This document shows positions 1,241 through 17,927 of a stretch of DNA of 64,000 nucleotides, piece after piece (position 1 is the stretch's first letter; each line of letters starts with the position of its first letter). Source of the stretch: Spongiibacteraceae bacterium (GTDB lineage: Bacteria > Pseudomonadota > Gammaproteobacteria > Pseudomonadales > CAMLJR01); the NCBI GenBank assembly GCA_047602265.1, contig JASGHU010000001.1:1154346-1218345 (forward strand), in the 5' to 3' direction. A model generated the notes under the pieces. It was not told the DNA's origin. It saw only the letters and a program-made list of their open reading frames with translations, and ran no database searches. The translations under genes were made by a program, and so were the position numbers.

Positions 1241-3292
1241 TCACGGCACAAATTTTTTCTTCTTATCGACATGATCGCGTAACTTCTGCGCCAGCTCCTC
1301 GAAACGATGCTGAAGTGCATAGTCGATCGCGGTCCTGCCATTTTTATCGCGGCGCGATGCGTCGGCGCCGGCATTCAGCAATGCCGCAACCGCTTTACTT
1401 GATCCGCTTGAGGCGGCCAGCATCAGCGCGGTCTCGCTGCGCGCGTTGCGGTGTTCGATATCGGCTTTGGCGGCGAGTAAGCGATCGATAATTCCCACCT
1501 GTCCATTGCGTGCCGCCAATAGCAGCGGGGTGTTGCCATCGCGTGTCGGTTCATCGATTTTTGCGCCACTGCGAATAAGTAGCGCGACAACCTCGTCATT
1601 GTCGCGGCTGGAAGCGATGGCGAGTGGCGTTGAATTATCATGATCGGCCAGATCCGGCGTTGCATGTTCGCGCAGTAATAGCGAAACGATTTCTGCTTTA
1701 TTGGTTGAAGCGGCGAGCCAAAGCGCTGATCGTCCCGCGCTATCGCGTTTATCAATCGGTGCGCCCGCAGCGATCAATTGTTGTGTCGCACTGACGAATC
1801 CTCGCTGAGCACACCATTGCAACGCGGTGCCATTAGCGAAGGTGGTATTGGCGAAGGCTGTATCGATGGCATTACTTTTTGTTAGTGGTGCGTTTGTCCG
1901 TAGTGCCTTTCGCAGCAGCTCGCTGACAATTCTTTCATCGCTGTTTTTTGCCGCGTAGGCGAGCAGGTCGGAGCGTGCTCCAGTTGGATCGATAAGCGCG
2001 CCATGCTGCATCAACATCTCAACCATGGTTGCATTGTTGCGCTCGACCGCGAACCACAATGCAGTTTTTTTCTCGGGGTCGATGGCATTGGGATTAGCGC
2101 CGGCCTGCAATAGCAGCGCGATGATTTTGTTTTCGCCCTGATGCGCGGCGCGCAGCAGCGGTGTGAAATGATCGGGATCGATGCTATCGATATTACTGCC
2201 TTGTTTTATCAGCGTATCGACCAGTGTTGCATCGCCGCGCCATGCTGCGATATTGAGTGCAGGCCAGTTGCTGTAGCGCGCATCGCCGCGCTGTGCGAGT
2301 TCGGTAATCTGTGTCGATGATGTTGCGCTGCTTCCGCTATCGACAGTTTTTTCAGTGCGCTTAATGCCCGCTGCAGCGAGCAATTGCACCAGGGCGTTGT
2401 TGCCGCTTCGCTTGGCAAGATCAAGTGCATTATCACCGGATAAATTACGCGCGTCTTTGGCGATCGGCTGCGCGAGCAGCTTTTTGCAAGCGTTGAGATT
2501 GCCGCGCGCGGCGGCGATGAGAAATGCAGTGTTGCCATTTCTATCGACGGCATGCATGTCGGCCCCATGCTGTATCAACGCATCGAGTATCTGCGGATTA
2601 TCGTTGTTCGCTGCCAGCAGAAGTGCAGTGTCGCCGCTGTGATTTTTGCTGTTAATAGCGGCGCCTTTGGTCAGCAGCAGCTCGACCGCTTCCGCATTGT
2701 TATTGCCAGCCGCCAGCATCAGCGCAGTATTGCCTTCGCTGTCGCTGGTATCGATAGCGATTGCACGCGTTAATAAAATTTTAAGTTGAGCGTTGTCGCC
2801 CTTGCGCGCCGCGTGCAAAAAAATCTCGCTGTTATCGCCGGCACTTGGATTGCCTGTCTGTGAAAAACCGGCAATTTTTTGTTGTGCTGGAGCGCTGCCA
2901 TTGGCCGCAGCCCGGCGTATCCATGCCAACGCCTGTGCGCTATCGGCTTGAGTGCCGAGTCCTTTTTCGTACATCGTCGCCAGCAGGTATTGTGCTCCTG
3001 CATGATCTTGCGCTGCGGCGCGCTGGTACCATTGCAAGGCTTGCGTGTAATCGACGGCAACACCTAATCCCATCCGATACAGCGTGCCGAGTTGGTATTG
3101 CGCTTCTGCGTTGCCCTGCGCAGCGGCCTCCTGAAATTTTTGCTGGGCAGCGACGTAATTGTTTTCCAGCAGCAAATCTTTTGCATCGTCAACGATGTCG
3201 GCGCGCGCGACACAGCAACCGCTGAAAATGTACGCGATGATGAGTGCGCAGCAGCGAAAACTAGGCGACGCCGAATTTGGTTTCGATCGCAA
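1241..3292 (-). CDS. Sel1-repeat plus ankyrin-repeat lipoprotein (about 683 aa)
   Basis: Three Sel1-like repeats are seen (AEAQYQLGTLYRMGLGV..., AGAQYLLATMYEKGLG...). More than 10 ankyrin repeats follow (GNTALMLAA..N.E.V..LL..GA). I prefer an in-frame TTG at 3292, preceded by GGAGA, which gives MRSKPNSASPSFRCCALIIAYIFSG|C, a lipoprotein signal with lipobox FSGC. The ORF-track start at 3343 is also TTG. The gene overlaps the upstream gene end by 32 nt. Confidence 0.8.
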   Translation of the reverse strand: MRSKPNSASPSFRCCALIIAYIFSGCCVARADIVDDAKDLLLENNYVAAQQKFQEAAAQGNAEAQYQLGTLYRMGLGVAVDYTQALQWYQRAAAQDHAGAQYLLATMYEKGLGTQADSAQALAWIRRAAANGSAPAQQKIAGFSQTGNPSAGDNSEIFLHAARKGDNAQLKILLTRAIAIDTSDSEGNTALMLAAGNNNAEAVELLLTKGAAINSKNHSGDTALLLAANNDNPQILDALIQHGADMHAVDRNGNTAFLIAAARGNLNACKKLLAQPIAKDARNLSGDNALDLAKRSGNNALVQLLAAAGIKRTEKTVDSGSSATSSTQITELAQRGDARYSNWPALNIAAWRGDATLVDTLIKQGSNIDSIDPDHFTPLLRAAHQGENKIIALLLQAGANPNAIDPEKKTALWFAVERNNATMVEMLMQHGALIDPTGARSDLLAYAAKNSDERIVSELLRKALRTNAPLTKSNAIDTAFANTTFANGTALQWCAQRGFVSATQQLIAAGAPIDKRDSAGRSALWLAASTNKAEIVSLLLREHATPDLADHDNSTPLAIASSRDNDEVVALLIRSGAKIDEPTRDGNTPLLLAARNGQVGIIDRLLAAKADIEHRNARSETALMLAASSGSSKAVAALLNAGADASRRDKNGRTAIDYALQHRFEELAQKLRDHVDKKKKFVP

Positions 3293-4568
3293 TGCCGATT
3301 TTCTCCAGCAATTGAGTGGGCAGAATACCGCCGGCGCAAACAATCACGGCATCGTTAGTCAGTTCGATGGTTCGATCATTGATGACGATGGCCACTTTGT
3401 TGGCGGAAATTGATTGCACCTGCGATGTGAGCAGCACGCGCAGTTTTTTGCTCGCGGTCATGGCTTCGAGATTTTCGCGATTTTTCGCTTTGACACGCGC
3501 GAACGCATTGCCGCGATAGGAAAGCGTCACCTGCGTGTCGGGTTGCTCGGCGATGCTCACAGCGGCTTCGATGGCGCTATCGCCACCGCCGACGACGAGC
3601 ACATGCTGGCCGCGATATTGTTCGGGGTCGATAAGCCGGTACACGACTTTAGCAAGCTCTTCGCCCGGCACACCCAATTGGCGCGGTGTGCCGCGTCGAC
3701 CCAGACACAGTAAAACTGTGCGTGCCGAGTAATTATTTTTGCTGGTGATAACGCGAAATTCACTATCGGCTTTTTCGATGTGATCGAGACGTTCGCCAAA
3801 CTGAATTTTCAGTTGCTGCTGGGACACAATGTTTTCCCAGAATTCCAATAGTTTTTCTTTCGTCGTCTCGCGAAAAGTGACTTCGCCGACAATCGGCAAT
3901 TTCGCCGGTGCAGTCATCACGATTTTCTGGCGAGGAAAATGGGCGACGGTTCCGCCCAGCGAATCCTGATCGATGATGGTGAATTTAAGTTGTGCTTCTT
4001 TCGCAGCGAGCGCTGCGGCAATGCCGGCGGGACCTGCACCGACGATGACGAGATCGAGCGCGCAGCGATGGCGTTCACGCAGCAATTGTTTGATCGATGC
4101 AACCGCTTGCGCGCCTTGTTGCACCGCGTTGCGAATCAAACCCATACCGCCGAGTTCGCCGGCGATAAAAATGCCCGGCACGTTGGTTTCGAAATTCGGT
4201 TTGATCTGCGGAATATCAACGCCGCGCGTTTCGGTGCCGAATACCAGCGTGATTGCATGGGTCGGGCAGGCTGTTGCACAGGCGCCATGGCCGACGCAAT
4301 TGGCTGCGGCGATCAACTCGGCCTTGTTGTGAATGAGGCCGAGCACATTGTGTTCCGGACAGGCCGACACGCAGGTGCCGCATCCCAGGCAGCGATTTGG
4401 ATCGATCACCGGGTGCAGGCTGACCGGTTCATGCATGCCATCGGCGATTGATGTCGCGCGGGCTTCAAGATTCAGCTGACTGCGCCGGTGCTGTAACCAC
4501 ACATAAATCGACACAATCGCCAGCATCGGCGCGGCGTAGTACAGGCCGATGATTAACGCATCATTCAT
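3261..4568 (-). CDS. Membrane-anchored 2x[Fe-S] ferredoxin domain fused to an FAD/NAD(P)-binding (thioredoxin-reductase-fold) oxidoreductase
   Basis: There is an N-terminal TM helix followed by HRRSQ. The first cluster motif is CLGCGTCVSACP and the second is CVGHGACATACP. Two Rossmann motifs are present (VIVGAGPAGIAAA and VLVVGGGDSAIEAA). No redox-active CxxC disulfide is seen. Confidence 0.85.
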   Translation of the reverse strand: MNDALIIGLYYAAPMLAIVSIYVWLQHRRSQLNLEARATSIADGMHEPVSLHPVIDPNRCLGCGTCVSACPEHNVLGLIHNKAELIAAANCVGHGACATACPTHAITLVFGTETRGVDIPQIKPNFETNVPGIFIAGELGGMGLIRNAVQQGAQAVASIKQLLRERHRCALDLVIVGAGPAGIAAALAAKEAQLKFTIIDQDSLGGTVAHFPRQKIVMTAPAKLPIVGEVTFRETTKEKLLEFWENIVSQQQLKIQFGERLDHIEKADSEFRVITSKNNYSARTVLLCLGRRGTPRQLGVPGEELAKVVYRLIDPEQYRGQHVLVVGGGDSAIEAAVSIAEQPDTQVTLSYRGNAFARVKAKNRENLEAMTASKKLRVLLTSQVQSISANKVAIVINDRTIELTNDAVIVCAGGILPTQLLEKIGIAIETKFGVA

Positions 4569-4825
4569 CGCTTAACGGTTCTCGAACAAGCCATTCACAT
4601 CGCACGCCCATGAAGTTGCGGTGAGCGCAACGTATGCGATTGCTTCCCAGCCTAGCAAAGCCAAGTTTTAGTGCGTGCGCCGCACAGCGGGAATGTGATA
4701 CAGCGCAAAACCCGCGCTAGTTGTAAGGTCATCTTAAGATTCGCTTAAGGTTGCATCACTACGATTTGGCGGCGACCGTTCGGGACAAGCGCTCGTAGAA
4801 AACAGATAACGCACGGAGCGAGGGG

Positions 4826-5365
4826 GTGCGAAATCCGGCGTCGGTAAATTCAAGAGCGGCTGCGAGCATGCCCATGCAAAATAAAAATCTGATCACCGGA
4901 GTCGCGGTGGTCGTCTTCATCATTGCCGCAGTTGCGGCGGGTCGATATGCGGCACAGCCGCGCGTTGAAATTACGTCTCCAGTTGCACAAGCGCTTGCGC
5001 CAACGGCGTTATCGGTTCCGCAAAGTGCCTCACCGCAAATGTCTCCTGTTCAAGGCAAGGTCGATGCGGTCGATGTGATGGTCGAGCGATTGCGCACACG
5101 CCTCGAGCGCGAACCTAACGATGTCGATGGCTGGGTGTTGTTAGGTCGCTCCTATCATTATCTCGAACGCTGGGAAGACGCTAAAGCTGCGTTCGCGAAA
5201 GCGCGCGAGCTCGGATACAAAGGCGATGGCGATATGCCGACGTCTTCGATAACCGACGATCAGAGCGGCGGCCGCGATGCCGGCAATGCAGAGCCTGTTT
5301 TTCACGACATCGGTCGCGTCGGCAGCGATAAGGGTTCTTCCACACAAACTGGAATTGCGCCGTGA
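4826..5365 (+). CDS. Membrane-anchored TPR protein resembling the C-terminal part of CcmI/CycH/NrfG
   Basis: There is one TM helix (ITGVAVVVFIIAAVAAG). A TPR segment follows (VERLRTRLEREPNDVDGWVLLGRSYHYLERWEDAKAAFAKARELG), as in cytochrome c maturation TPR proteins. GTG at 4826 is preceded by GGAG; an alternative ATG lies at 4868. Confidence 0.6.
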   Translation: MRNPASVNSRAAASMPMQNKNLITGVAVVVFIIAAVAAGRYAAQPRVEITSPVAQALAPTALSVPQSASPQMSPVQGKVDAVDVMVERLRTRLEREPNDVDGWVLLGRSYHYLERWEDAKAAFAKARELGYKGDGDMPTSSITDDQSGGRDAGNAEPVFHDIGRVGSDKGSSTQTGIAP

Positions 5366-6216
5366 ACGCAGCGACTGCTGCGCCGGCGCGCGCAAAAAAT
5401 AAAACGCAATACGCCGATCGCAGCAGCACCATTTTATTTTCGCTGACGGTGATTGCCGCGCTGATCTACGGCTGGCAACACCGCGGCGAATACTACCTCA
5501 CGGCGGAGCACGGCATCGGCTATGCGCTTGGCATCATCGGCGGCTCGATGATGTTGCTGTTGCTGCTCTATCCATTGCGCAAACGGCTGCGTTTTATGGA
5601 GCGTTGGGCGCCGCTGCGTTTTTGGTTTCGCACGCACATGATTCTGGGTGTGATCGGTCCGCTGTGCATTCTGTACCACTGCAATTTTCAGCTCGGTGCC
5701 GCCAATAGCAATATCGCATTGCTGTGCATGGGGTTGATGGTCGGCAGCGGGCTCATCGGTCGCTTTATTTACGGAAAAATTCACTACGGTCTCTACGGTC
5801 AGCGCGCAACGCTGCAGGAATTGCAAAAACAAATGCAGGCTTCGGAGCAGGCGCTGCGCAATCAGCGCGATGCCAGTCTCGGTGACGCGGCGTTTGAACG
5901 TTTGCGCGCGCTGGAAATTTTTGCGCTGCAGCGGCGCAGTTTTTTCGGCAATATCGCGCGCCTTCTAACCATCGGCCGTCGTACCCGTGCCGAACACAAA
6001 TGGTTTGTGGCCCATCTCGGCAAGCTTGCCGTGCACAGCGAAATCAAGCACGAGGTCCTCGCGCAAATTCACACCTTTCTCGCCGTGATCAAGCGCATCG
6101 CCGGTATCAGCTTTTACGAACGTTTATTTTCATTGTGGCATGTGCTGCACATGCCGATATTTTTCATGCTGGTCGTCACCGGGCTGATACATGTCTATGC
6201 CGTGCACCTGTATTGA
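5362..6216 (+). CDS. His-rich polytopic inner-membrane protein (about 5 TM helices plus a coiled-coil loop), family unknown
   Basis: Hydrophobic helices occur at about aa 24-38, 52-73, 88-106, 118-137 and 258-281. His residues lie in TM3 (HMILGVIGPLCILYH) and TM5 (WHVLHMPIFFMLVVTGLIHVYAVH). The GTG start overlaps the upstream stop (GTGA). Confidence 0.7.
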   Translation: MNAATAAPARAKNKTQYADRSSTILFSLTVIAALIYGWQHRGEYYLTAEHGIGYALGIIGGSMMLLLLLYPLRKRLRFMERWAPLRFWFRTHMILGVIGPLCILYHCNFQLGAANSNIALLCMGLMVGSGLIGRFIYGKIHYGLYGQRATLQELQKQMQASEQALRNQRDASLGDAAFERLRALEIFALQRRSFFGNIARLLTIGRRTRAEHKWFVAHLGKLAVHSEIKHEVLAQIHTFLAVIKRIAGISFYERLFSLWHVLHMPIFFMLVVTGLIHVYAVHLY

Positions 6217-7804
6217 TGGCGGTCGTTGGCTGCGCGAAATCGGCGTATTTTTTCTTGTCGTATTGATGATGTTATTCGCTCGCCCTGTGAATGCAGAAAA
6301 CTTCAATTTTAAAAGCCTGTTGATGCCGGGAAAGCTGGTGGAGGGACACGCCAAATTGGAAAGCGATTGCAATCAATGCCACGCGTCTTTTGCCAAGCAG
6401 GCACAGGATCAGCTCTGTGTTCAGTGCCACGATGTCATCGCGGCCGATATTGCCAATAAAAAAGGTTTTCACGGCAAGCTCGATCATCAAACCGCATTGA
6501 CGTGCAAGCAATGTCACACCGATCACCGCGGTCGCGATGCGGATATCGTCGGCCTCGATCGCGATACGTTTAATCACGCCGCGACCGATTTCAATCTTGA
6601 AGGTAAGCACGCCGGTCTCGCCTGCGCGAGCTGCCATGAGCAGGGGAAAAAATTCCGTGACGCCAGCAGCGAATGTTTTGCCTGTCATCGCAAAGACGAT
6701 CGCCATAAAGGCGCGCTGGGAAAACAGTGCGCAACGTGCCATAGCCCGGTGGCGTGGAAGCAGACGCGTTTCGACCACGGCAAAACGCAATTCGCGCTCA
6801 AGGGTGGGCACCAGCAAGTCAATTGTGCAGCGTGTCATCCCGGCGAGAGCTACAAAAATACCCCGAAAGCCTGTGTGTCGTGCCATGCGCTGAACGATGT
6901 GCATCGCGGTGCCAACGGCGATAAATGTCAGCAGTGTCACAACGAAAGCGGTTGGAAAAAAACCACGTTCGATCATGCGCGCGACACCCATTTCGCACTG
7001 CGCGGTGCGCATGCAACAACGAATTGCAGTGGCTGTCATCGCGAAGGCAAGTTTGAGGTGAAATTAAAAACCGAGTGCGTCGCCTGCCATCGCACCGACG
7101 ATATTCATAAAGGAAAAAATGGCGAGCGCTGCGATTCGTGCCACAACGAATCGTCCTGGTCACAGAAAAAATTCGATCACAACACCGCGACGAAATTCAT
7201 GCTCAAAGGCAAGCATGCCGATGTTGCGTGCAACAGTTGTCATCGCGGCAATGTGCACGACGCATTACCGCAGACGTGTATCGGCTGCCATCGACTCGAT
7301 GATGTACACAAAGGGCAGCAGGGCGAAACCTGCGATAAATGCCACAACGAAAACGGCTGGAAAAATAAAGTCGCTTTCGATCACAGCAAAACCCAATTTC
7401 CGCTGCAGGGTTTGCATGCCGTAGTGCCGTGCGAAGGATGTCATATCAGTGCCGCGTTTAAAGGCACGCCGACGCGTTGTATCGGCTGCCACAAAAAAGA
7501 TGACAAGCACAAAGGTTCGTTCGGCGATAAATGCGATTCGTGCCACACCAGCAAGGGCTGGAAACGTGTGTTGTTCGATCACAACAAAAATACGCAATTT
7601 CCGCTCACGGGTGCCCATGCAAAAACGCAATGCACTGATTGTCATCGCGAGCCAGCGGACAAAGTGAAGTTGTCACGCGATTGTTTCAGTTGCCACGATG
7701 CCGATGACACGCACGACGGACGCTTCGGCCGTTATTGCGAGCGTTGCCACAACACGACGGATTTTAAAAACGTGGATTTCAAGCAAATGAATTTGCTCCA
7801 TTAG
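6191..7804 (+). CDS. 21-heme c-type cytochrome made of seven tandem c7-type triheme modules
   Basis: I counted 21 CXXCH motifs in the translation. The repeating module is FDH..F.L.G.H...C..CH / C..CH..DD.H.G / C..CH. A signal peptide is present (IGVFFLVVLMMLFARPVNA|EN). The start (6191 or 6197) overlaps the upstream gene by about 26 nt. Confidence 0.9.
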   Translation: MSMPCTCIDGGRWLREIGVFFLVVLMMLFARPVNAENFNFKSLLMPGKLVEGHAKLESDCNQCHASFAKQAQDQLCVQCHDVIAADIANKKGFHGKLDHQTALTCKQCHTDHRGRDADIVGLDRDTFNHAATDFNLEGKHAGLACASCHEQGKKFRDASSECFACHRKDDRHKGALGKQCATCHSPVAWKQTRFDHGKTQFALKGGHQQVNCAACHPGESYKNTPKACVSCHALNDVHRGANGDKCQQCHNESGWKKTTFDHARDTHFALRGAHATTNCSGCHREGKFEVKLKTECVACHRTDDIHKGKNGERCDSCHNESSWSQKKFDHNTATKFMLKGKHADVACNSCHRGNVHDALPQTCIGCHRLDDVHKGQQGETCDKCHNENGWKNKVAFDHSKTQFPLQGLHAVVPCEGCHISAAFKGTPTRCIGCHKKDDKHKGSFGDKCDSCHTSKGWKRVLFDHNKNTQFPLTGAHAKTQCTDCHREPADKVKLSRDCFSCHDADDTHDGRFGRYCERCHNTTDFKNVDFKQMNLLH

Positions 7805-7825
7805 GATGAGCGAGGCTTCGCTGCC

Positions 7826-9555
7826 ATGAACGATACATACACGACATTCGCACACATGATTCGATTCGTTCGCTATTGCTTGCTGGTGTTGTGCTGTTGT
7901 GGCGCGGCAAGCGCGGCGGATTTCGATCACACCAAAACCGGATTTGCGCTGGAGGGGCCGCACGCACATATCGCCTGCGAAAGTTGTCACGTGCGCGGAC
8001 AATTCAAAGGTACACCGCGCAATTGTGCGGGTTGTCATACGCCGGGAACGATGGTTTCAGCATCGGCAAAATCGCCGAAGCACATTAATTCGACGGCCGA
8101 TTGCGCAGCGTGTCATCGCAGTGTGACGAGTTGGGATTCTGTCACGCGCGTCGATCACACGGCCGTGCTCGGTAATTGCGGCAGTTGTCATAACAATCGT
8201 CTGGTCGCAGGTAAACCGGCGGGACATATTCAGTCGGGCGACGATTGCAAATCCTGTCATAACACCAGTTTGTGGAGCGCTGCAGGTTTTGATCACACCG
8301 GCATCACCGGCAATTGTGTGAGCTGTCATAACGGTCAAACCGCGCCGGGTAAATCGGCGGATCACGTCACCGCGAGCAATACTTGCGAGAGTTGTCATTC
8401 AACGCGCGCATGGTTGCCGGCGCGTTTCGATCACGCGGGTATTTCGAGTAATTGCGTGAGCTGCCATAACGGCACGCGCTTCACCGGAAAATCGAGCAGC
8501 CATATCGCGTCGTCAAATCTTTGCGAGTCTTGTCACGGCACTGCGATGTGGGTGCCGGCAACGCATGTCGATCACACACAGGTGACGGGTTCGTGCGCGA
8601 GTTGCCATAACGGCACGATTACGACGGGAAAAAATCCGACGCACATCGCGAGCACCAATGCGTGCGAAGCGTGTCATTCGACGAGTGTGTGGAGTCCGGT
8701 GACGCGTGTCGATCACGCGCAAGTGACCGGTTCGTGTTCGAGTTGCCATAACGGCGTCAAAGCCACGGGAAAAAATCCAACACACATCGCCAGCACGAAT
8801 ACTTGTCAGGCGTGTCACTCGGTGAGCGTGTGGAATCCTGCAACGCGTGTCGATCACACGCAGGTGACGGGTTCGTGCGCGAGTTGCCACAACGGCACCA
8901 CGGCAATTGGAAAATCGCCGAGCCATATCGCCACCAATTCGAGTTGCGATTTATGCCATACCACGAGTGCGTGGTCGCCGACGCATTTCGATCACAGCGG
9001 CGTTAGCGGAACGTGCGCGAGTTGTCACAACGGCACCACCGCGACGGGAAAATCACCGAGCCATATCAGTACGACATCGAATTGCGATTTATGTCATACC
9101 ACGAGCGCGTGGTCGCCAACGCATTTCAATCACAGCGGTGTCACGGGTACGTGCGCGAGTTGCCATAACGGCACCACCGCCACGGGAAAAAGCCCGACCC
9201 ATATTGCGAGCACCAATGCGTGCGAAGCGTGTCACTCGACCGCAGGTTGGAGTCCGGCAACACGCGTCGATCACACGCAGGTCACCGGTTCGTGTTCGAG
9301 TTGCCACAACGGCACCACGGCAACTGGTAAATCGCTCACGCATCCGGGCACCACAAATACCTGCGATGCCTGCCACAGCACCACTGCGTGGTCGCCGCTG
9401 CGGCGCATGGATCACACGCAATTATTGTCGACCACGCGCTGCGATAGCTGTCACTTGAACGATAAGCCGCGCGATCATCCAAGCACGGGCGGCAAAGATT
9501 GCGGCGCGTCGGGTTGTCACGGCACCGCGCACAATTACACGTCGTGGAGCAGGTA

Positions 9556-9556
<1 letters not shown>
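7826..9556 (+). CDS. 22-heme (plus one CX4CH site) c-type cytochrome: an N-terminal c7-like triheme followed by ten tandem di-heme units
   Basis: I counted 22 CXXCH motifs plus CGASGCH near the C-terminus. The unit motif is (R/H)(V/F)DH..V.G.C.SCHNG..A.GK...HI.....C..CH....W.P. A signal peptide is present (MIRFVRYCLLVLCCCGAASA|AD). Confidence 0.9.
8144..9454 (+). repeat. Intragenic tandem repeat array, period 138-141 bp (46-47 aa, two heme sites per unit), about 10 units
   Basis: The unit anchor residue, Asp in nine units and Asn at 435, falls at residues 110, 156, 202, 249, 296, 343, 389, 435, 482 and 529. The adjacent units 8909-9046 and 9047-9184 match at about 118 of 138 positions by manual alignment. 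Confidence 0.85.
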
Positions 9557-11770
<2,214 letters not shown>

Positions 11771-11772
<2 letters not shown>

Positions 11773-11791
11773 GGCGGAGTATTTCCGCCTC
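11771..11791 (+). terminator. Stem-loop at the operon end (8-bp perfect stem GAGGCGGA/TCCGCCTC, 5-nt loop), no U-tract
   Basis: The hairpin starts within the TGA stop of the last gene of the cytochrome operon. The lack of a T-run makes intrinsic termination uncertain. Confidence 0.45.
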
Positions 11792-11864
11792 GGTGTGATC
11801 GCGGCCAATTCAAGCCGCCGCGTTTTGTCAGCGACAAATGTTTTGTCGGTGATGTCGGTAATAA

Positions 11865-12566
11865 TTATTGCGCCGGTGTTTCACGCGGAATAATTTTAAT
11901 TTCAACGCGACGGTTTTGCGCGCGCCCTTCAGCGGTTTTGTTATCCGCAATCGGTTGGCTTGCGCCCATGCCGATCGCTTGCATGCGCTCGTGATCGACG
12001 CCCTGCGCCGTCAGATAAACGACAACGGCATTGGCGCGATTCACTGACAATTGTTGGTTGTATGCCGCAGCGCCAGTGCTATCGGTATGGCCGATAATCT
12101 GTACCGTGGTGTCGGGATAGCTTTTCAGCGAAGTTGCCACATCGTTGAGCGGGCCATAAAAATTCGAGGTCAGTTGCGCGCTGTTGGTGGCGAAGCTGAT
12201 CGCATTCGGTACGACCAGATTGATCGTGTCGCCCTGACGCTGGACTTCAACGCCGGAATTTTCCAACTGTTTGCGCAGTTCCGCTTCTTGTTTATCCGCG
12301 CGATGACCGATTGCCGCGCCGATACCGCCACCGGCCGCTGCGCCGATCAAAGCGCCTTTGCCGCGATCGTGCTTGCTCGAAACCGCTGCGCCGAGAATTG
12401 CACCGGCAACAGCGCCGATGCTGGCATCTTTAGTAGTGTTGGATACCTTGCGATCGCCGGTATTGGGGTCGGTGGTCATGCAGCCGGCAAGCAGGGCGGC
12501 GGTCACGAATCCCACTGCGAGTGCGCGCGGTTTACGAATAAATGATGCGGTGGCCGTGGAGGTCAT
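11865..12566 (-). CDS. OmpA-family (OmpA/MotB C-terminal domain) lipoprotein with a glycine-zipper segment
   Basis: A lipoprotein signal is present (MTSTATASFIRKPRALAVGFVTAALLAG|C) with an AGGAAA RBS. The Gly-zipper reads GAVAGAILGAA...GAAAGGGIGAAIG. The OmpA_C motif reads IIGHTDSTGAAAYNQQLSVNRANAV...NRRVEI. The ORF continues upstream to 12758 (see findings). Confidence 0.8.
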   Translation of the reverse strand: MTSTATASFIRKPRALAVGFVTAALLAGCMTTDPNTGDRKVSNTTKDASIGAVAGAILGAAVSSKHDRGKGALIGAAAGGGIGAAIGHRADKQEAELRKQLENSGVEVQRQGDTINLVVPNAISFATNSAQLTSNFYGPLNDVATSLKSYPDTTVQIIGHTDSTGAAAYNQQLSVNRANAVVVYLTAQGVDHERMQAIGMGASQPIADNKTAEGRAQNRRVEIKIIPRETPAQ

Positions 12567-12830
12567 GGATGTTTTCCTATGGGCTGAAAATTTCGATGGG
12601 TGTTTGCTGGTGCAATTTGGATTGCGCGGTGCCGCGCTAGGTTCCTGTCGAATTGTGCAAACATTTTGCGACTCGGCGCCTTTCGCTAATGCAATTGCGA
12701 GTACCGCAAAAGCGCGGGTGGTGTCGGCGCTGCGCGTGGTTCTGCCGGTTTTCATCATTGTTCTCCTGACGACAGTGAGTTCGACGCGGTAGGTTTTTAC
12801 CGTTGTCGATTCGGGCCTGTTGTCTGGAGA

Positions 12831-13651: not shown

Positions 13652-14884
13652 TTAAAACGCCAATTCCCAGCAGGGTTTGGCGATGCGTGGTGCGGGTAAA
13701 TCGGCGCATGCGGCAGGAAGCGGTGGCGCCTTGGTGTCGAACAGCGATGCAGCTTCGCTATTTAACAGCGCTTCGACTTCATCGGCCATATTGGGTGCCA
13801 GTGTTAATTTGGTCGGCCAGGCGACGATGATATTGCGGTGATGGTCGGCAAAGCTCGCAAACGCTTTGTCGGGTTTAACGAGACCTTTTTGTTTTGGCTC
13901 GGCGCGATCGATGCGCAGCGTTGCCCATTGCGCTTTGTCATCGAGAGCGGTGGGACCGAAATTCACCCACGGAAATAAATCGCACAATTCATTTCTGGCA
14001 GCGTCGATCAATTGTCCCTCGGATAACTCGACGCCTTCAGTGGCGAGATCGCCGCCCAGATACCAGACCCACTGACCATCGCGCAAACGATGGCTCGAAA
14101 TGGTCAAGCGCGGCGATGGATTCGCGCCGGTGCAATGCGCATACAGCGCATGCGGGTACGCGTGTTTGACCAGTGCCTGATGCAGCGGTCGCCGCTGCAT
14201 TTCGGGTTTCTTGCAGCCGATTTCGCCGAGCAGCGCCGCGTTGCCGGCGCCGGCGCTGAACACGAAAGCTTGTGCGTTGCAGCGAATCGAATCGGCGCCG
14301 CAGTTAGCAATCAAAGCGGTGACTTTGCCGCGTGCATCGCGATCGAACGTGAGGCTTTCTTTGTCGACATGAAAAATACTGCCGCGTGCATTGGCGGCAA
14401 GTTTGCTCAATACCGATGGCACATCGAGCACCAGATCGACGAGGCGATACACGTTGCCGCGAAATGCCGGATTTTGAAAAATCGGATGGCGTTCGTCGGC
14501 GCCGACGCTATCGACGCGACCGCGTGTCATCTTGCTGGCAAAAAATGAGGTGAGCCGCGACGCGATGGTGTCGCTCGACCACAGATAAAAGTGATCGCTC
14601 AGAATATTCGCGCCGCGCAAATCGACATCGCCTTCGCCCTGCAGGCAGCGGCGCCAATGTGCAGGCATATCGGCGATGGCTTCGGACGAGCCGGTCAGCG
14701 CACCGCTCAACGCGTATTTGATACCGCCGTGAATCATGCCCTGCGAATTCACGCTCTGCTGGCTGCCCAGTGCTTCGTGCTCGAACAGTACCGCGTTGTA
14801 GCCGCGCGAGCGCAGCCGATTGAGCAGCCACAAGCCGCCGATGCCGCCGCCGATAATGGCGATATCCACGTCGAATGCGAACAA
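13652..14884 (-). CDS. FAD-dependent oxidoreductase (DAO/GR2-type)
   Basis: An N-terminal dinucleotide fold is present (DIAIIGGGIGGLWLLNRL). The product is about 410 aa and the gene forms an operon with the AKR gene. The start codon is TTG. Confidence 0.8.
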   Translation of the reverse strand: MFAFDVDIAIIGGGIGGLWLLNRLRSRGYNAVLFEHEALGSQQSVNSQGMIHGGIKYALSGALTGSSEAIADMPAHWRRCLQGEGDVDLRGANILSDHFYLWSSDTIASRLTSFFASKMTRGRVDSVGADERHPIFQNPAFRGNVYRLVDLVLDVPSVLSKLAANARGSIFHVDKESLTFDRDARGKVTALIANCGADSIRCNAQAFVFSAGAGNAALLGEIGCKKPEMQRRPLHQALVKHAYPHALYAHCTGANPSPRLTISSHRLRDGQWVWYLGGDLATEGVELSEGQLIDAARNELCDLFPWVNFGPTALDDKAQWATLRIDRAEPKQKGLVKPDKAFASFADHHRNIIVAWPTKLTLAPNMADEVEALLNSEAASLFDTKAPPLPAACADLPAPRIAKPCWELAF

Positions 14885-15070
14885 GGTGATTTCCCGGAAA
14901 GATGAAACTGGCGCGCAGTATAGCGCGGTCGAAAGCGCTGGCGTGCTTATCGAGGCATCTCTTTTGTCGGGAGATGTTGCTTATCGCATAGCCTCTATTG
15001 TTGAGCCGGATCGCTTATCGAGTAACATGGCGCGCACTAATTCATTCGCATAAATACATCGTCACGGAGC

Positions 15071-16363
15071 ATGCCCACACCGATGGCTCGTCTGCTTTAT
15101 ACCGCGCTGTTTTATTTATCGTTGCCGCTGATCGTGGCGCGGCTCTGGTGGCGCGGTCGTCGTGCGCCGGCATATCGGCAGCGCATCGCGGAACGCTTCG
15201 GTTATTTTTCGCAGCAGGTTGCGCCCAGCGGAATTTGGGTGCACGCGGTATCGGTCGGCGAAGTGATTGCAGCGGCGTCGTTGGTGCGAGCGTTATTGCA
15301 GCGTCATCCCAACGTGCCAATCACAATAACCACGATGACGCCGACCGGCTCCGAGCGCGTACGCGATCTGTTCAGCAAAGAGCTGCTCACTCATTCGGTA
15401 TTTCACGTCTATGCGCCCTACGATGTGCCGCATTGCCTCGCGCGTTTTTTGCAACGTGTGCAGCCGCGTCTGTTAATTATTATCGAAACCGAATTGTGGC
15501 CGAATACCGTGCACGCCTGCGCGATGCGCAATATTCCCGTGGTGCTCGCGAATGCACGGTTGTCGGAAAAATCGGCGCGCGGTTATGGCCGTTTTCGTGC
15601 GCTGACGACACCGATGTTGCGCGAGCTTGATAAAGTCGTTGCGCAAAATGCCGACGACGGTGCGCGCTTCGTTGCACTCGGGCTGCCGCAGAAAAATCTC
15701 GCCATATCCGGCAGTATCAAATTCGATATCTCGCTCGATGCGGAATTGATGGCGCGAGCGCAACAGATGCGCGTTGAGTGGCGCAGTGAAAATCGTTTTA
15801 CTTGGATTGCTGCGAGCACGCATGTGGGTGAAGATGAAATCGTGCTGCAGGCGCATCGCCAATTGCGTGCGCAATATCCCGATGCATTATTGATTTTGGT
15901 GCCGCGCCATCCCGAACGCTTCAACGACGTTGCCGCATTCATCGAAAAAAATAATTTTGCCTTTGTGCGGCGCTCTGCAGGGCCGACAATTGCCGGCGAT
16001 TGTGCCGTATTGCTCGGCGATACCATGGGCGAATTATTGTTTTTGCTTGGTTGCGCCGATTGTGCGTTCGTCGGCGGCAGTTTGATCGCGCGCGGTGGGC
16101 ACAACACGCTTGAGCCGGCGGCGTGGGGTTTGCCGATCATTACCGGGCCGAGCGATTTTAATTTTCGCGAAATTTCTGCGCTGCTGCAGCGCGATGGCGC
16201 GTTGAAAATGGTTGCGAATGAAAATGCGCTGGCTGGTGAATTAATTGCGTTGGCGGGAAATGCTGAATTGCGCTCGCAGCGCGGTGGTGCAGCCAAGCAG
16301 GTTGTTGCTGCGAATCGCGGTGCGCTCGAAAAATTAATTCGCGAAATTGAAGGTTATTTATAA
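15071..16363 (+). CDS. waaA: 3-deoxy-D-manno-octulosonic acid (Kdo) transferase
   Basis: The 430-aa product shows WaaA/KdtA hallmarks (RFGY....G.IWVHAVSVGEV, ITTMTPTGSERV, VPRHPERF, GGSL...GGHN.LEPAA). Confidence 0.9.
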   Translation: MPTPMARLLYTALFYLSLPLIVARLWWRGRRAPAYRQRIAERFGYFSQQVAPSGIWVHAVSVGEVIAAASLVRALLQRHPNVPITITTMTPTGSERVRDLFSKELLTHSVFHVYAPYDVPHCLARFLQRVQPRLLIIIETELWPNTVHACAMRNIPVVLANARLSEKSARGYGRFRALTTPMLRELDKVVAQNADDGARFVALGLPQKNLAISGSIKFDISLDAELMARAQQMRVEWRSENRFTWIAASTHVGEDEIVLQAHRQLRAQYPDALLILVPRHPERFNDVAAFIEKNNFAFVRRSAGPTIAGDCAVLLGDTMGELLFLLGCADCAFVGGSLIARGGHNTLEPAAWGLPIITGPSDFNFREISALLQRDGALKMVANENALAGELIALAGNAELRSQRGGAAKQVVAANRGALEKLIREIEGYL

Positions 16364-16377
16364 ACAGAAGTTTTGAA

Positions 16378-16412
16378 AATCATTGCGCCGAGTAGCGCTC
16401 GACGCAATGATT
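16378..16412. terminator. Hairpin between convergent waaA and tolC (10-bp arms AATCATTGCG/CGCAATGATT)
   Basis: The inverted repeat was read directly. It lies in the 55-nt gap between two convergent stops. No clear U-tracts are present. Confidence 0.45.
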
Positions 16413-16418
16413 GGCGAA

Positions 16419-17927
16419 TTAACGTTTTTTCCTTTCGGTTTTCTTGTCGGTGTTTTCGTCCGGCGTTTTGTCTTCAGTAATCGTGTACGTGCTCGCTTTC
16501 GGCGAATCGGGTGCGACCAGCCAATCGTTCAAGTCATTAATATCCTGCGGGCTCAGCGTGCCGGCTACCTGTTTCAAGCGCAGCATGTCGAGCACATAAT
16601 CGTAGCGCGCGTTGGCGTAATCGCGTTGTGCTGCAAAAAATACGCGTTGCGTTTGCAGCACATCGACGATATTGCGCGTGCCGACTTCGTAACCGGCTTT
16701 CGTCGCATCGAGCGCGCTTTGCGCGGAGATAATCGATTGCGCGCGCGCTTTCACCCGTTGTACATCGGTGTTGGCGGCGATATGCCGGGCGCGTGTACCT
16801 TGAATGACGGAGCGCTCGGTATCGGTTTTGCGTTCGAGCGTAGCGCTGTATTGCGCGGCTGCCTGACGCTGCGCCGAACTGGTATAACCGCCGCTGTAAA
16901 TCGGTACGGTCAAATTCAGCATGGCGGCTTTGGTGTCGGTTTGGGCATCGGGCGGAAAACTGAGTAGAGACTGCGGATTGGTGTCGGTAGTGCCGCTGAC
17001 ATCATCGTGTTTGTAGCTCAGGCTGCCGGTGAGCTTTGGAGCATGTTCCCAGCGTTTTGATGCCGCGTTTTCTTCGGCTGCTTCCATCGCGTAACGCGCA
17101 GCTTTCAACGCGTAATTGCCATTGAGTGCAAAGTTAACCCACTCGGCGCGATCGTTCGGTGCTGGTTCAGTGACGGGAAATTCTTTATTCAGCAACGATA
17201 AGTTTGCGTGCGGTTGTCCGGTGAATGTGCTGAGGGTTTCGTAGGCGCTGGCGAGTGCGCCTTCATCGGTGAGTCGCGATGCATAACTCGCATCGTAAGC
17301 AGCGCGCGCTTCGTGCACATCGGTAATCGCGACGAGGCCGACATCGAAACGCTGTTGCGCCTGTTCGAGTTGGCGTTTATCGGCGCGCTCTTCGGCGAGT
17401 GCAACTTGTAAATTGTCCCATTGTCGCAACACGGTGAAATACGCTTCGGCGACACGCACGATTAAATCCTGCTGATCGGCACTGAATTGCGCTTTGGCCT
17501 GCTCGCTGACAACGCGTCCGCTTTTAAACGAAAACCACGACGGCATATCGAATAATGCCTGAGTAAGACTTACGCCCCAGCTTTTGTCCGTGGTATCGGT
17601 TTGCGTGTTGACCTTGCTGCTGGTGAGGTCAAAAAGACTGCTGCCAGTCAGTGATTGGCTGTCTTGATCGCGATCGACTTTGCCGTAGCTCGCCTCGCCA
17701 TTCAGTTGCGGCAGCAAGCGCGATTTAGCTTGCTGTTCGGTTTCCAAATTCGCTTTGTACGTAGCCTCGGCCGCTTTCAATTTGGCATCGTTTTTTATCG
17801 CCAATTCATAAATATCGCGCAGCGAGTCGGCGTATGCGTGCGTGCCGGTCAGCAGACTGCAGCAAAGCGCTGCGCTTATGCTGCTGAGTCGAATCGTCTT
17901 GAGTCGAAAGCGCGAGATCCTGTTCAT
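16419..17927 (-). CDS. tolC: TolC-family outer-membrane efflux channel
   Basis: A signal peptide precedes the TolC N-terminal motif (SLRDIYELAIKNDAKLKAAEATYKA...LPQL). Two repeated alpha/beta halves are present, and there is a charged C-terminal tail. Confidence 0.9.
   Translation of the reverse strand: MNRISRFRLKTIRLSSISAALCCSLLTGTHAYADSLRDIYELAIKNDAKLKAAEATYKANLETEQQAKSRLLPQLNGEASYGKVDRDQDSQSLTGSSLFDLTSSKVNTQTDTTDKSWGVSLTQALFDMPSWFSFKSGRVVSEQAKAQFSADQQDLIVRVAEAYFTVLRQWDNLQVALAEERADKRQLEQAQQRFDVGLVAITDVHEARAAYDASYASRLTDEGALASAYETLSTFTGQPHANLSLLNKEFPVTEPAPNDRAEWVNFALNGNYALKAARYAMEAAEENAASKRWEHAPKLTGSLSYKHDDVSGTTDTNPQSLLSFPPDAQTDTKAAMLNLTVPIYSGGYTSSAQRQAAAQYSATLERKTDTERSVIQGTRARHIAANTDVQRVKARAQSIISAQSALDATKAGYEVGTRNIVDVLQTQRVFFAAQRDYANARYDYVLDMLRLKQVAGTLSPQDINDLNDWLVAPDSPKASTYTITEDKTPDENTDKKTERKKR

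Follow-up and report, generated by a model that had tools for sequence, protein, structure and literature searches.

A multihaem cytochrome with a variable di-haem array, the probable outer cytochrome of a PCC3-type cluster in a Spongiibacteraceae bacterium

The multihaem cytochrome c gene described here (the target) lies at 7826..9556 on the plus strand of a 64,000-nucleotide stretch of DNA from a Spongiibacteraceae bacterium (contig JASGHU010000001.1; hereafter the window, from whose first letter all coordinates are counted). Its intact open reading frame (ORF) of 576 amino acids contains 22 CXXCH haem-binding motifs and one CX4CH motif, and we consider it very likely that the product is the variable outer cytochrome of a PCC3-type cluster, the counterpart of the protein called cyt-c_e or the ‘extracellular’ multihaem cytochrome (MHC). 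This type of cluster has already been described, and the target adds another case of a known kind. It also provides evidence that insertions and deletions (indels) of whole repeat units set the length of the outer cytochrome, while its two ends are conserved and the CX4CH haem site lies in one of them.

Gene content of the PCC3-type cluster

The bioinformatic definition of PCC3 comes from He et al. 2017 (PMC5566968; Front Microbiol 8:1584), and a later survey of it from Hoover et al. 2023 (PMC9900912). In the passages of these papers that describe its parts, the inner-membrane protein (IMP) has about 300 amino acids and five transmembrane helices, with WX3HX13H motifs in helices 3 and 5 and SGXXG in helix 4 (He et al. 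2017, PMC5566968), and the periplasmic MHC carries 21, 24 or 27 haem motifs (PMC9900912). The extracellular MHC is a low-complexity, T/S/A/G-rich protein assembled from repeats with one or more haems each, and its haem number varies, with 10-35 haems in Gallionellaceae and, overall, a median of 34 and a maximum of 85 (PMC5566968, PMC9900912). Published passages on Sideroxydans lithotrophicus ES-1 give the gene order as Slit_1446 (IMP), Slit_1447 (cyt-c_p), Slit_1448 (cyt-c_e) and Slit_1449 (porin).

The window holds the same gene set in the same order, together with an IMP of matching size and motifs, a 21-haem MHC, a T/S/A/G-rich variable MHC and a barrel, and the layout recurs in most of 80 genome loci (here and below, the best 80 species-level loci of a genome scan, among which ES-1 does not figure). 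Relatives were fetched with the non-repetitive IMP as bait. The IMP gene (5362..6216, plus strand) encodes a putative di-haem b protein of 284 amino acids without a Pfam match. Five hydrophobic segments are evident, of which the third and fifth carry WX3HX13H (at residues 88 and 259) and the fourth carries SGXXG (at residue 129), and these motif residues are invariant in 34 homologues. A profile search of the PDB with the IMP returned nothing meaningful. Its sequence is 100% identical to that of a protein from a Spongiibacteraceae metagenome-assembled genome.

Two cytochrome genes follow. The first (6191..7804, plus strand) encodes a K/D-rich protein of 537 amino acids that corresponds to cyt-c_p, the ‘periplasmic’ MHC. 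Its 21 CXXCH motifs are a number that stays constant across relatives (65 of 76 share it), unlike that of the target; a single-sequence PDB search with it gave no match. The second is the target, which is weakly charged and consists of 46% T/S/A/G, compared with 27% in its 21-haem partner. Because it is T/S/A/G-rich, repetitive and variable beside a constant 21-haem MHC, we equate it with cyt-c_e.

The fourth gene (9556..11772, plus strand) encodes the outer-membrane beta-barrel protein, or ‘porin’, of 738 amino acids, and its GTG start overlaps the TAG stop of the target by 1 nt. A signal peptide is followed by a beta-sandwich (approximately residues 50-165), a (TP)12 linker (10264-10335) and a predicted 22-strand barrel. 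In the AlphaFold2 (AF2) model the 22 strands have pLDDT values above 90 and are preceded by the beta-sandwich and the disordered linker, and a Foldseek search with this model retrieves the outer-membrane barrels of FimD, MOMP, PorB and TonB-dependent receptors in the PDB. In more distant barrel homologues, TPR repeats replace the N-terminal part.

As far as the ES-1 cluster is described in the published passages, the window resembles it in having the four genes, their order, the IMP motifs, a first cytochrome with 21 haems, a second that is repetitive, rich in small residues and of variable haem number, and a large beta-barrel. Two differences are apparent. First, the barrel has 22 predicted strands in the window, whereas the relevant passage of the 2017 paper predicts ‘up to 42 transmembrane regions’. 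Second, the host is a Spongiibacteraceae gammaproteobacterium and no known iron oxidizer, unlike ES-1; in the text-form supplements of He et al. 2017, Spongiibacter, Glaciecola and the like are not listed as hosts of PCC3. PCC3 is among the most widespread predicted outer-membrane electron conduits, and the window offers a clean and complete example outside the iron-oxidizer lineages. The PCC3 literature passages that were searched contain no mention of a terminal CX4CH cap, of unit-level indels or of the iron-sulfur (FeS) flavoprotein and ankyrin neighbors described below.

Haem motifs and domain matches of the target

The target protein begins with a Sec signal peptide of 30 residues (7826..7915, plus strand), for which inspection predicts cleavage by signal peptidase I (SPase-I) between ASA and ADFDH; an SPase-I site of the form AxA followed by ADFDH is present in every orthologue, and the protein is predicted to be exported through this signal. 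Inspection of the alignment reveals no lipobox in the target or in any orthologue, in agreement with the first-pass annotation, which had seen none in this protein. The stretch LVLCCCG was considered as a candidate lipobox and rejected, given an unsuitable residue at position -1 and a run of Cys residues that is missing from all orthologues.

Behind the signal peptide lies a tri-haem module (7916..8143, plus strand; CXXCH at residues 51, 67 and 93) that is kept in all orthologues. Next come nine regular di-haem units of 46-47 amino acids, or 138/141 nt (8144..9400, plus strand), whose central members form the zone of variable copy number. The protein ends in a diverged cap (9401..9553, plus strand) that carries CDSCH at residue 539 and the conserved CX4CH motif CGASGCH at residues 559-565. 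An Asp (residues 110, 156, 202, 249, 296, 343, 389, 482 and 529) or, once, an Asn (435) heads each 46-47-residue unit, the tenth of which is the cap, RRMDHTQLLSTTRCDSCH...CGASGCH, with CX4CH instead of CXXCH as its second haem site. This site recurs in 5 of 5 syntenic orthologues as C[GN][AD]S[GS]CH, and conservation of the C559, C564 and H565 columns is at least 90% in an alignment of 121 sequences, made up of the query and 120 relatives.

The mature protein contains 46 Cys residues, or 23 x 2, and this number together with the conserved CX4CH motif leads us to predict 23 covalent haems (22 at CXXCH and one at CX4CH), or about 24 amino acids per haem. A further 28 His residues lie beyond those of the motifs, enough to provide each of the 23 haems with bis-His ligation, an arrangement to which the repeat pattern points. 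The first-pass annotation had described a 22-haem protein with an N-terminal tri-haem part and ten tandem di-haem units, each carrying two haem sites and a pair of distal His residues. All ten anchors proved to be placed correctly, and the sites and His residues at these anchors are borne out on the translated ORF. Its count of 22 holds for CXXCH motifs, but three haems plus ten pairs make 23 sites, the last being the CX4CH site of the cap; likewise, only nine of the ten units are regular (18 CXXCH), and the tenth is the diverged cap.

The search for doubled-CXXCH families that the same annotation had proposed yields matches above the cut-offs: Pfam Cytochrome_C7 (PF14522) scores 107.4 bits against a gathering threshold of 24.8 and covers 9 stretches of the protein, and Paired_CXXCH_1 (PF09699) scores 41.0 bits against 20.6. 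The NCBIfam model for DmsE/MtrA (TIGR03508) matches residues 30-262 (E 2e-24, 86.4 bits), a stretch that opens with the tri-haem module and extends into the first array units. The target is nevertheless not a member of this family, given a score under the cut-off of 192.2 and 22-23 haem motifs rather than ten; nor is it a member of OmcA/MtrC (TIGR03507), for which its score of 24.4 bits stays below the cut-off of 209.3. MtrA (6r2q_A) is the sole match of the target when the PDB is searched with the single sequence. A PDB profile search with the target family ranks MtrC domain II (3e-20) and MtrA (6r2q_A; 2e-17) and also finds HmcA and MtrF, and includes no solved structure for any member of the target’s own family.

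Three known kinds of multihaem system invite comparison. Like MtrA/DmsE (MtrCAB structure 6R2Q), the target has the features of a bis-His rod with few amino acids per haem, has an SPase-I signal, is encoded directly upstream of a barrel gene and shows detectable sequence similarity, in its case over approximately its first ten haems. Unlike MtrA/DmsE, it has 23 predicted haems rather than 10, and a tandem di-haem unit of variable copy number. With MtrC, OmcA and MtrF it shares a profile similarity to the pentahaem domain II and a proposed role at the cell surface, but it lacks the lipoprotein signal and the beta-barrel flavin-binding domains I and III of these proteins, and its repeat architecture is linear. 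Finally, it resembles nanowire polymers (the dodecahaem c7 polymer GSU1996 and the 16-haem HmcA) in repeating small haem modules into an elongated chain, and it matches the Pfam families Cytochrome_C7 and c3. Its unit differs from theirs in being a 46-47-residue di-haem module, not a tri-haem c7 or tetra-haem c3 module, and the protein is linked to an outer-membrane barrel.

Age of the repeats and variation in unit number

Tandem Repeats Finder recovers the array with a period of 138 at 8874-9204 (84% matches, score 466) and a period of 141 at 8555-9318 (5.5 copies, score 512). We do not regard the repeat as a chance pattern, because both scores far exceed the default reporting threshold of 50. 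The most similar adjacent units, 8909-9046 and 9047-9184 (together 8909..9184, plus strand), are identical at 118 of 138 positions (85.5%) in the best register. Between units 4-9 of the target, DNA identity amounts to 61-80% unit by unit, and the longest exact repeat within the gene is a 29-nt match between the CEACH blocks at 8648 and 9206. These results agree with what had been noted from the letters alone, namely tandem DNA repeats, near-identical blocks in the CEACH units and a hand-aligned pair whose count of 118/138 is exact.

The further claim that these repeats look young and attest to recent crossing-over or conversion did not survive. In the best pair, 13 of about 31 synonymous sites have changed (about 42%), with a synonymous divergence (dS) of 0.62 and a nonsynonymous divergence (dN) of 0.07, and other closest unit pairs within the target give dS values of 0.56-0.65. 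The closest syntenic relative (locus L001, whose IMP is about 80% identical, or 79-81% by alignment) provides a measure for comparison. Units 6-10 of the target pair one-to-one with units 5-9 of L001 at 80-90% DNA identity, compared with 78-80% for the best paralogue, and the orthologous units differ by dS values of 0.55-1.57 (0.47 for the pair of first units). Thus, paralogous units are about as diverged at synonymous sites as the orthologous units of L001 are, with dS values of 0.56-0.65 for the former and of 0.47-0.77 for the latter in this comparison. Because the two kinds of divergence are about the same and the units map one-to-one, the array predates the split from L001, and the repeats are old, with no sign of recent conversion in these comparisons. 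Gene conversion as the source of the 85% pair was ruled out, as the same paired units occur in the closest relative and the synonymous sites are about 42% different.

A related concern, that the array is recently expanded or distorted by assembly and hence that its count of units in the window cannot be relied on, strikes us as highly improbable. It draws on the tandem 138/141-nt periodicity and on other family members that hold 100%-identical units and exact repeats of 143-335 nt. Against these stand the age of the best pair and the 29-nt maximum for exact repeats in the target, and it is because of this maximum that collapse of the array during assembly, a risk raised in the first-pass annotation, is improbable here; the risk is real in those other members. 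Moreover, the ORF is intact, five units match the closest orthologue one-to-one, and the unit count of the target recurs in an independent relative (L006).

Between lineages, the number of units does vary. Syntenic orthologues carry 20 (L001), 18 (L007 and L009), 22 (L006) and 28 (L004 and L005) CXXCH motifs, compared with 22 in the target, and in all of them the CX4CH cap is additional to these counts. A global alignment of the orthologues resolves every length difference into an in-frame gap of one or two whole central units. The breakpoints lie within units, at sites that are homologous to one another, such as those behind GKxx or DHTQ. No orthologue lacks the tri-haem head, units 1-2, the final two units or the cap. 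L004 has a lineage-specific triplication of units 4-6 with 86-91% DNA identity. In the 80 genome loci, the number of CXXCH motifs in the counterpart gene ranges over 9-47.

Five of the counterpart genes hold 100%-identical units and exact repeats of 143-335 nt: L041 (12543-15611), L072 (12462-15407), L060 (12358-15660), L068 (12499-15600) and L025 (14000-16277). Four of these five have 29-43 CXXCH motifs, and the L025 counterpart is split into two reading frames. Expansion in these loci is truly recent, and their unit counts in short-read metagenome-assembled genomes are suspect. Clean whole-unit indels are the expected signature of unequal recombination or slippage, and gain and loss of units by such events is ongoing within the family, because whole-unit indels separate orthologues and identical units occur in five loci. 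The copy in the window is an old array and falls midway in the family’s distribution. The suggestion in the first-pass annotation that copy number varies consequently stands for differences between lineages (18-28 CXXCH among orthologues and 9-47 more widely) and fails only as regards recency in the genome under study.

Topology, electron route and flanking genes

We propose that the target forms a thin, long haem rod that would act in series with the putative di-haem b IMP, the 21-haem cytochrome spanning the periplasm and the 22-strand outer-membrane barrel, and that this chain would move electrons between the exterior of the cell and its inner membrane. Docking and terminal exchange would probably take place at the two conserved ends, the N-terminal module with its MtrA likeness and the C-terminal CX4CH cap, and the variable center of the array would set the length of the rod. 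A function of the target as a haem wire across the outer membrane is inferred from this arrangement. The AF2 model of the target displays a strictly periodic 46-residue pattern of secondary structure with pLDDT values of 70-86 along the array.

Where the target sits relative to the barrel is a separate question. It could be a barrel-threaded component of the MtrA type, with its N-terminus in the periplasm at the 21-haem cytochrome and its array running through and beyond the 22-strand barrel, an arrangement that we treat as a serious contender of somewhat lower probability than its exclusion. Similarity to DmsE/MtrA is found in residues 30-262 of the target and is absent from the 21-haem protein, and MtrA is the only protein that the single-sequence PDB search retrieves. 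Unlike the lipoproteins MtrC and OmcA, every orthologue carries an SPase-I signal and lacks a lipobox. The 1-nt overlap with the barrel gene, and end-to-start gene calls in the four orthologous loci where both genes are called, make for an adjacency that mirrors mtrA-mtrB. The SPase-I signal, the MtrA likeness and the coupling to the barrel suit this topology at least as well as an extracellular one. On the other side, published localization predictions and AlphaFold-based cartoons, in the passages of PMC5566968 and PMC9900912 concerned, put cyt-c_e outside and the 21-haem protein in the periplasm or barrel, and the profile search ranks MtrC domain II slightly above MtrA.

Several of these observations, and some from the literature, weigh against the assignment of the target as the outer cytochrome of a PCC3 electron conduit. 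Its ‘extracellular’ placement is doubtful, because a lipobox is missing, the N-terminal half resembles MtrA, which is of the barrel-inserted type, and the gene is coupled to that of the barrel. The AF2 model has a pTM of 0.38 and is thus weak on the overall shape of the rod. The likeness to ES-1 is one of description, motifs and gene order. In the passages available on ES-1 proteomes, the cyt-c_e homologue is undetected, and those of papers from 2025 still present PCC3 as functionally unverified; no experiment on a PCC3 protein is known.

Alternatively, the target could be a periplasmic electron store (capacitor) or the partner of a periplasmic enzyme, with the barrel serving otherwise. We judge this unlikely. 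Proteins with many haems can buffer electrons, a role raised for PCC3 in a passage of PMC9900912, and some barrel homologues bear N-terminal TPR domains reminiscent of polysaccharide exporters. Yet the order IMP, 21-haem MHC, variable MHC, barrel is kept strictly from phylum to phylum, the cytochrome and barrel genes are coupled in translation, and the T/S/A/G-rich, weakly charged target is unlike its K/D-rich partner. We thus retain the outer cytochrome of a PCC3-type conduit as the preferred reading of the target.

On the minus strand, upstream of the cluster, lie divergently transcribed genes for an oxidoreductase that combines an FAD/NAD(P) domain with two [4Fe-4S] clusters (3261..4568), in which inspection finds an N-terminal hydrophobic segment that is likely a membrane anchor, and for a Sel1 and ankyrin-repeat protein of 700 amino acids (1241..3343). 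The oxidoreductase gene lies beside that of the IMP in 76 of 88 loci and the Sel1/ankyrin gene in 68 of 88, in several phyla. Across loci, the oxidoreductase is the more conserved protein, with 51-85% identity compared with 37-81% for the IMP. He et al. 2017 do not mention such neighbor genes for PCC3 in the passages seen, and a full-text literature search for PCC3 together with ankyrin gave nothing relevant. The two proteins may be where electrons enter or leave the conduit on its cytoplasmic side, and a conserved FeS-flavoprotein partner on that side could indicate the direction of electron flow.

A bolder and rather improbable extension of this idea is that PCC3 is wider than four genes. 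The IMP has haem-b pairs of the HX13H type, like those of NOX/FRE proteins, and because of these motifs and the adjoining conserved oxidoreductase, the two proteins could together be a split ferric-reductase/NOX chain. Electrons would pass from NAD(P)H through FAD, FeS clusters, two haems b, 21 haems and approximately 23 haems to the outside, so that the cluster would be an outward NAD(P)H-fed reductase and not an iron oxidase. The target cytochrome would be its length-adjustable tip, with a reach tuned by gain and loss of whole units, a process still under way in some lineages.

The first of five tightly packed plus-strand genes, ahead of those for the IMP, the 21-haem cytochrome, the target and the barrel, encodes a CcmH/CycH/NrfG-like TPR protein (4826..5365) and overlaps the start of the IMP gene. 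It is conserved in close relatives, being syntenic in L001-L007 and L009, and is detected in only 27 of 88 loci. Its product may serve as an apocytochrome chaperone dedicated to the pair of haem-dense proteins or to the CX4CH site. A promoter scan of 4400-12000 found no sigma-70-like site. Just past the barrel gene is a terminator-like hairpin (11801..11818, plus strand), a consensus match only, which possibly marks the end of an operon. An OmpA-like gene follows directly on the minus strand (11865-12758). In L004 and L005, a response regulator and a histidine kinase (14789-16814) are encoded between the barrel gene and a conserved gene for an OmpA/YiaD-like lipoprotein.

Automated annotation of these repetitive cytochrome genes is unreliable, and we suggest the label ‘variable multihaem cytochrome of PCC3-type cluster’ for the target. 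Long antisense ORFs cover the array in the window (8513-8926 and 9089-9421). In L005 (10862-12598) and L002 (8935-10473), the public calls are short minus-strand genes despite an intact, haem-rich plus-strand ORF. The closest locus from the genome collection, L009 (CAZCNY010000003.1), has an IMP that is 73% identical and full synteny, and is labelled ‘uncultured Verrucomicrobiaceae’. Named close homologues (an identical IMP and the barrel protein P0250) are labelled Spongiibacteraceae, unlike L009, whose label may be an error of binning or taxonomy.

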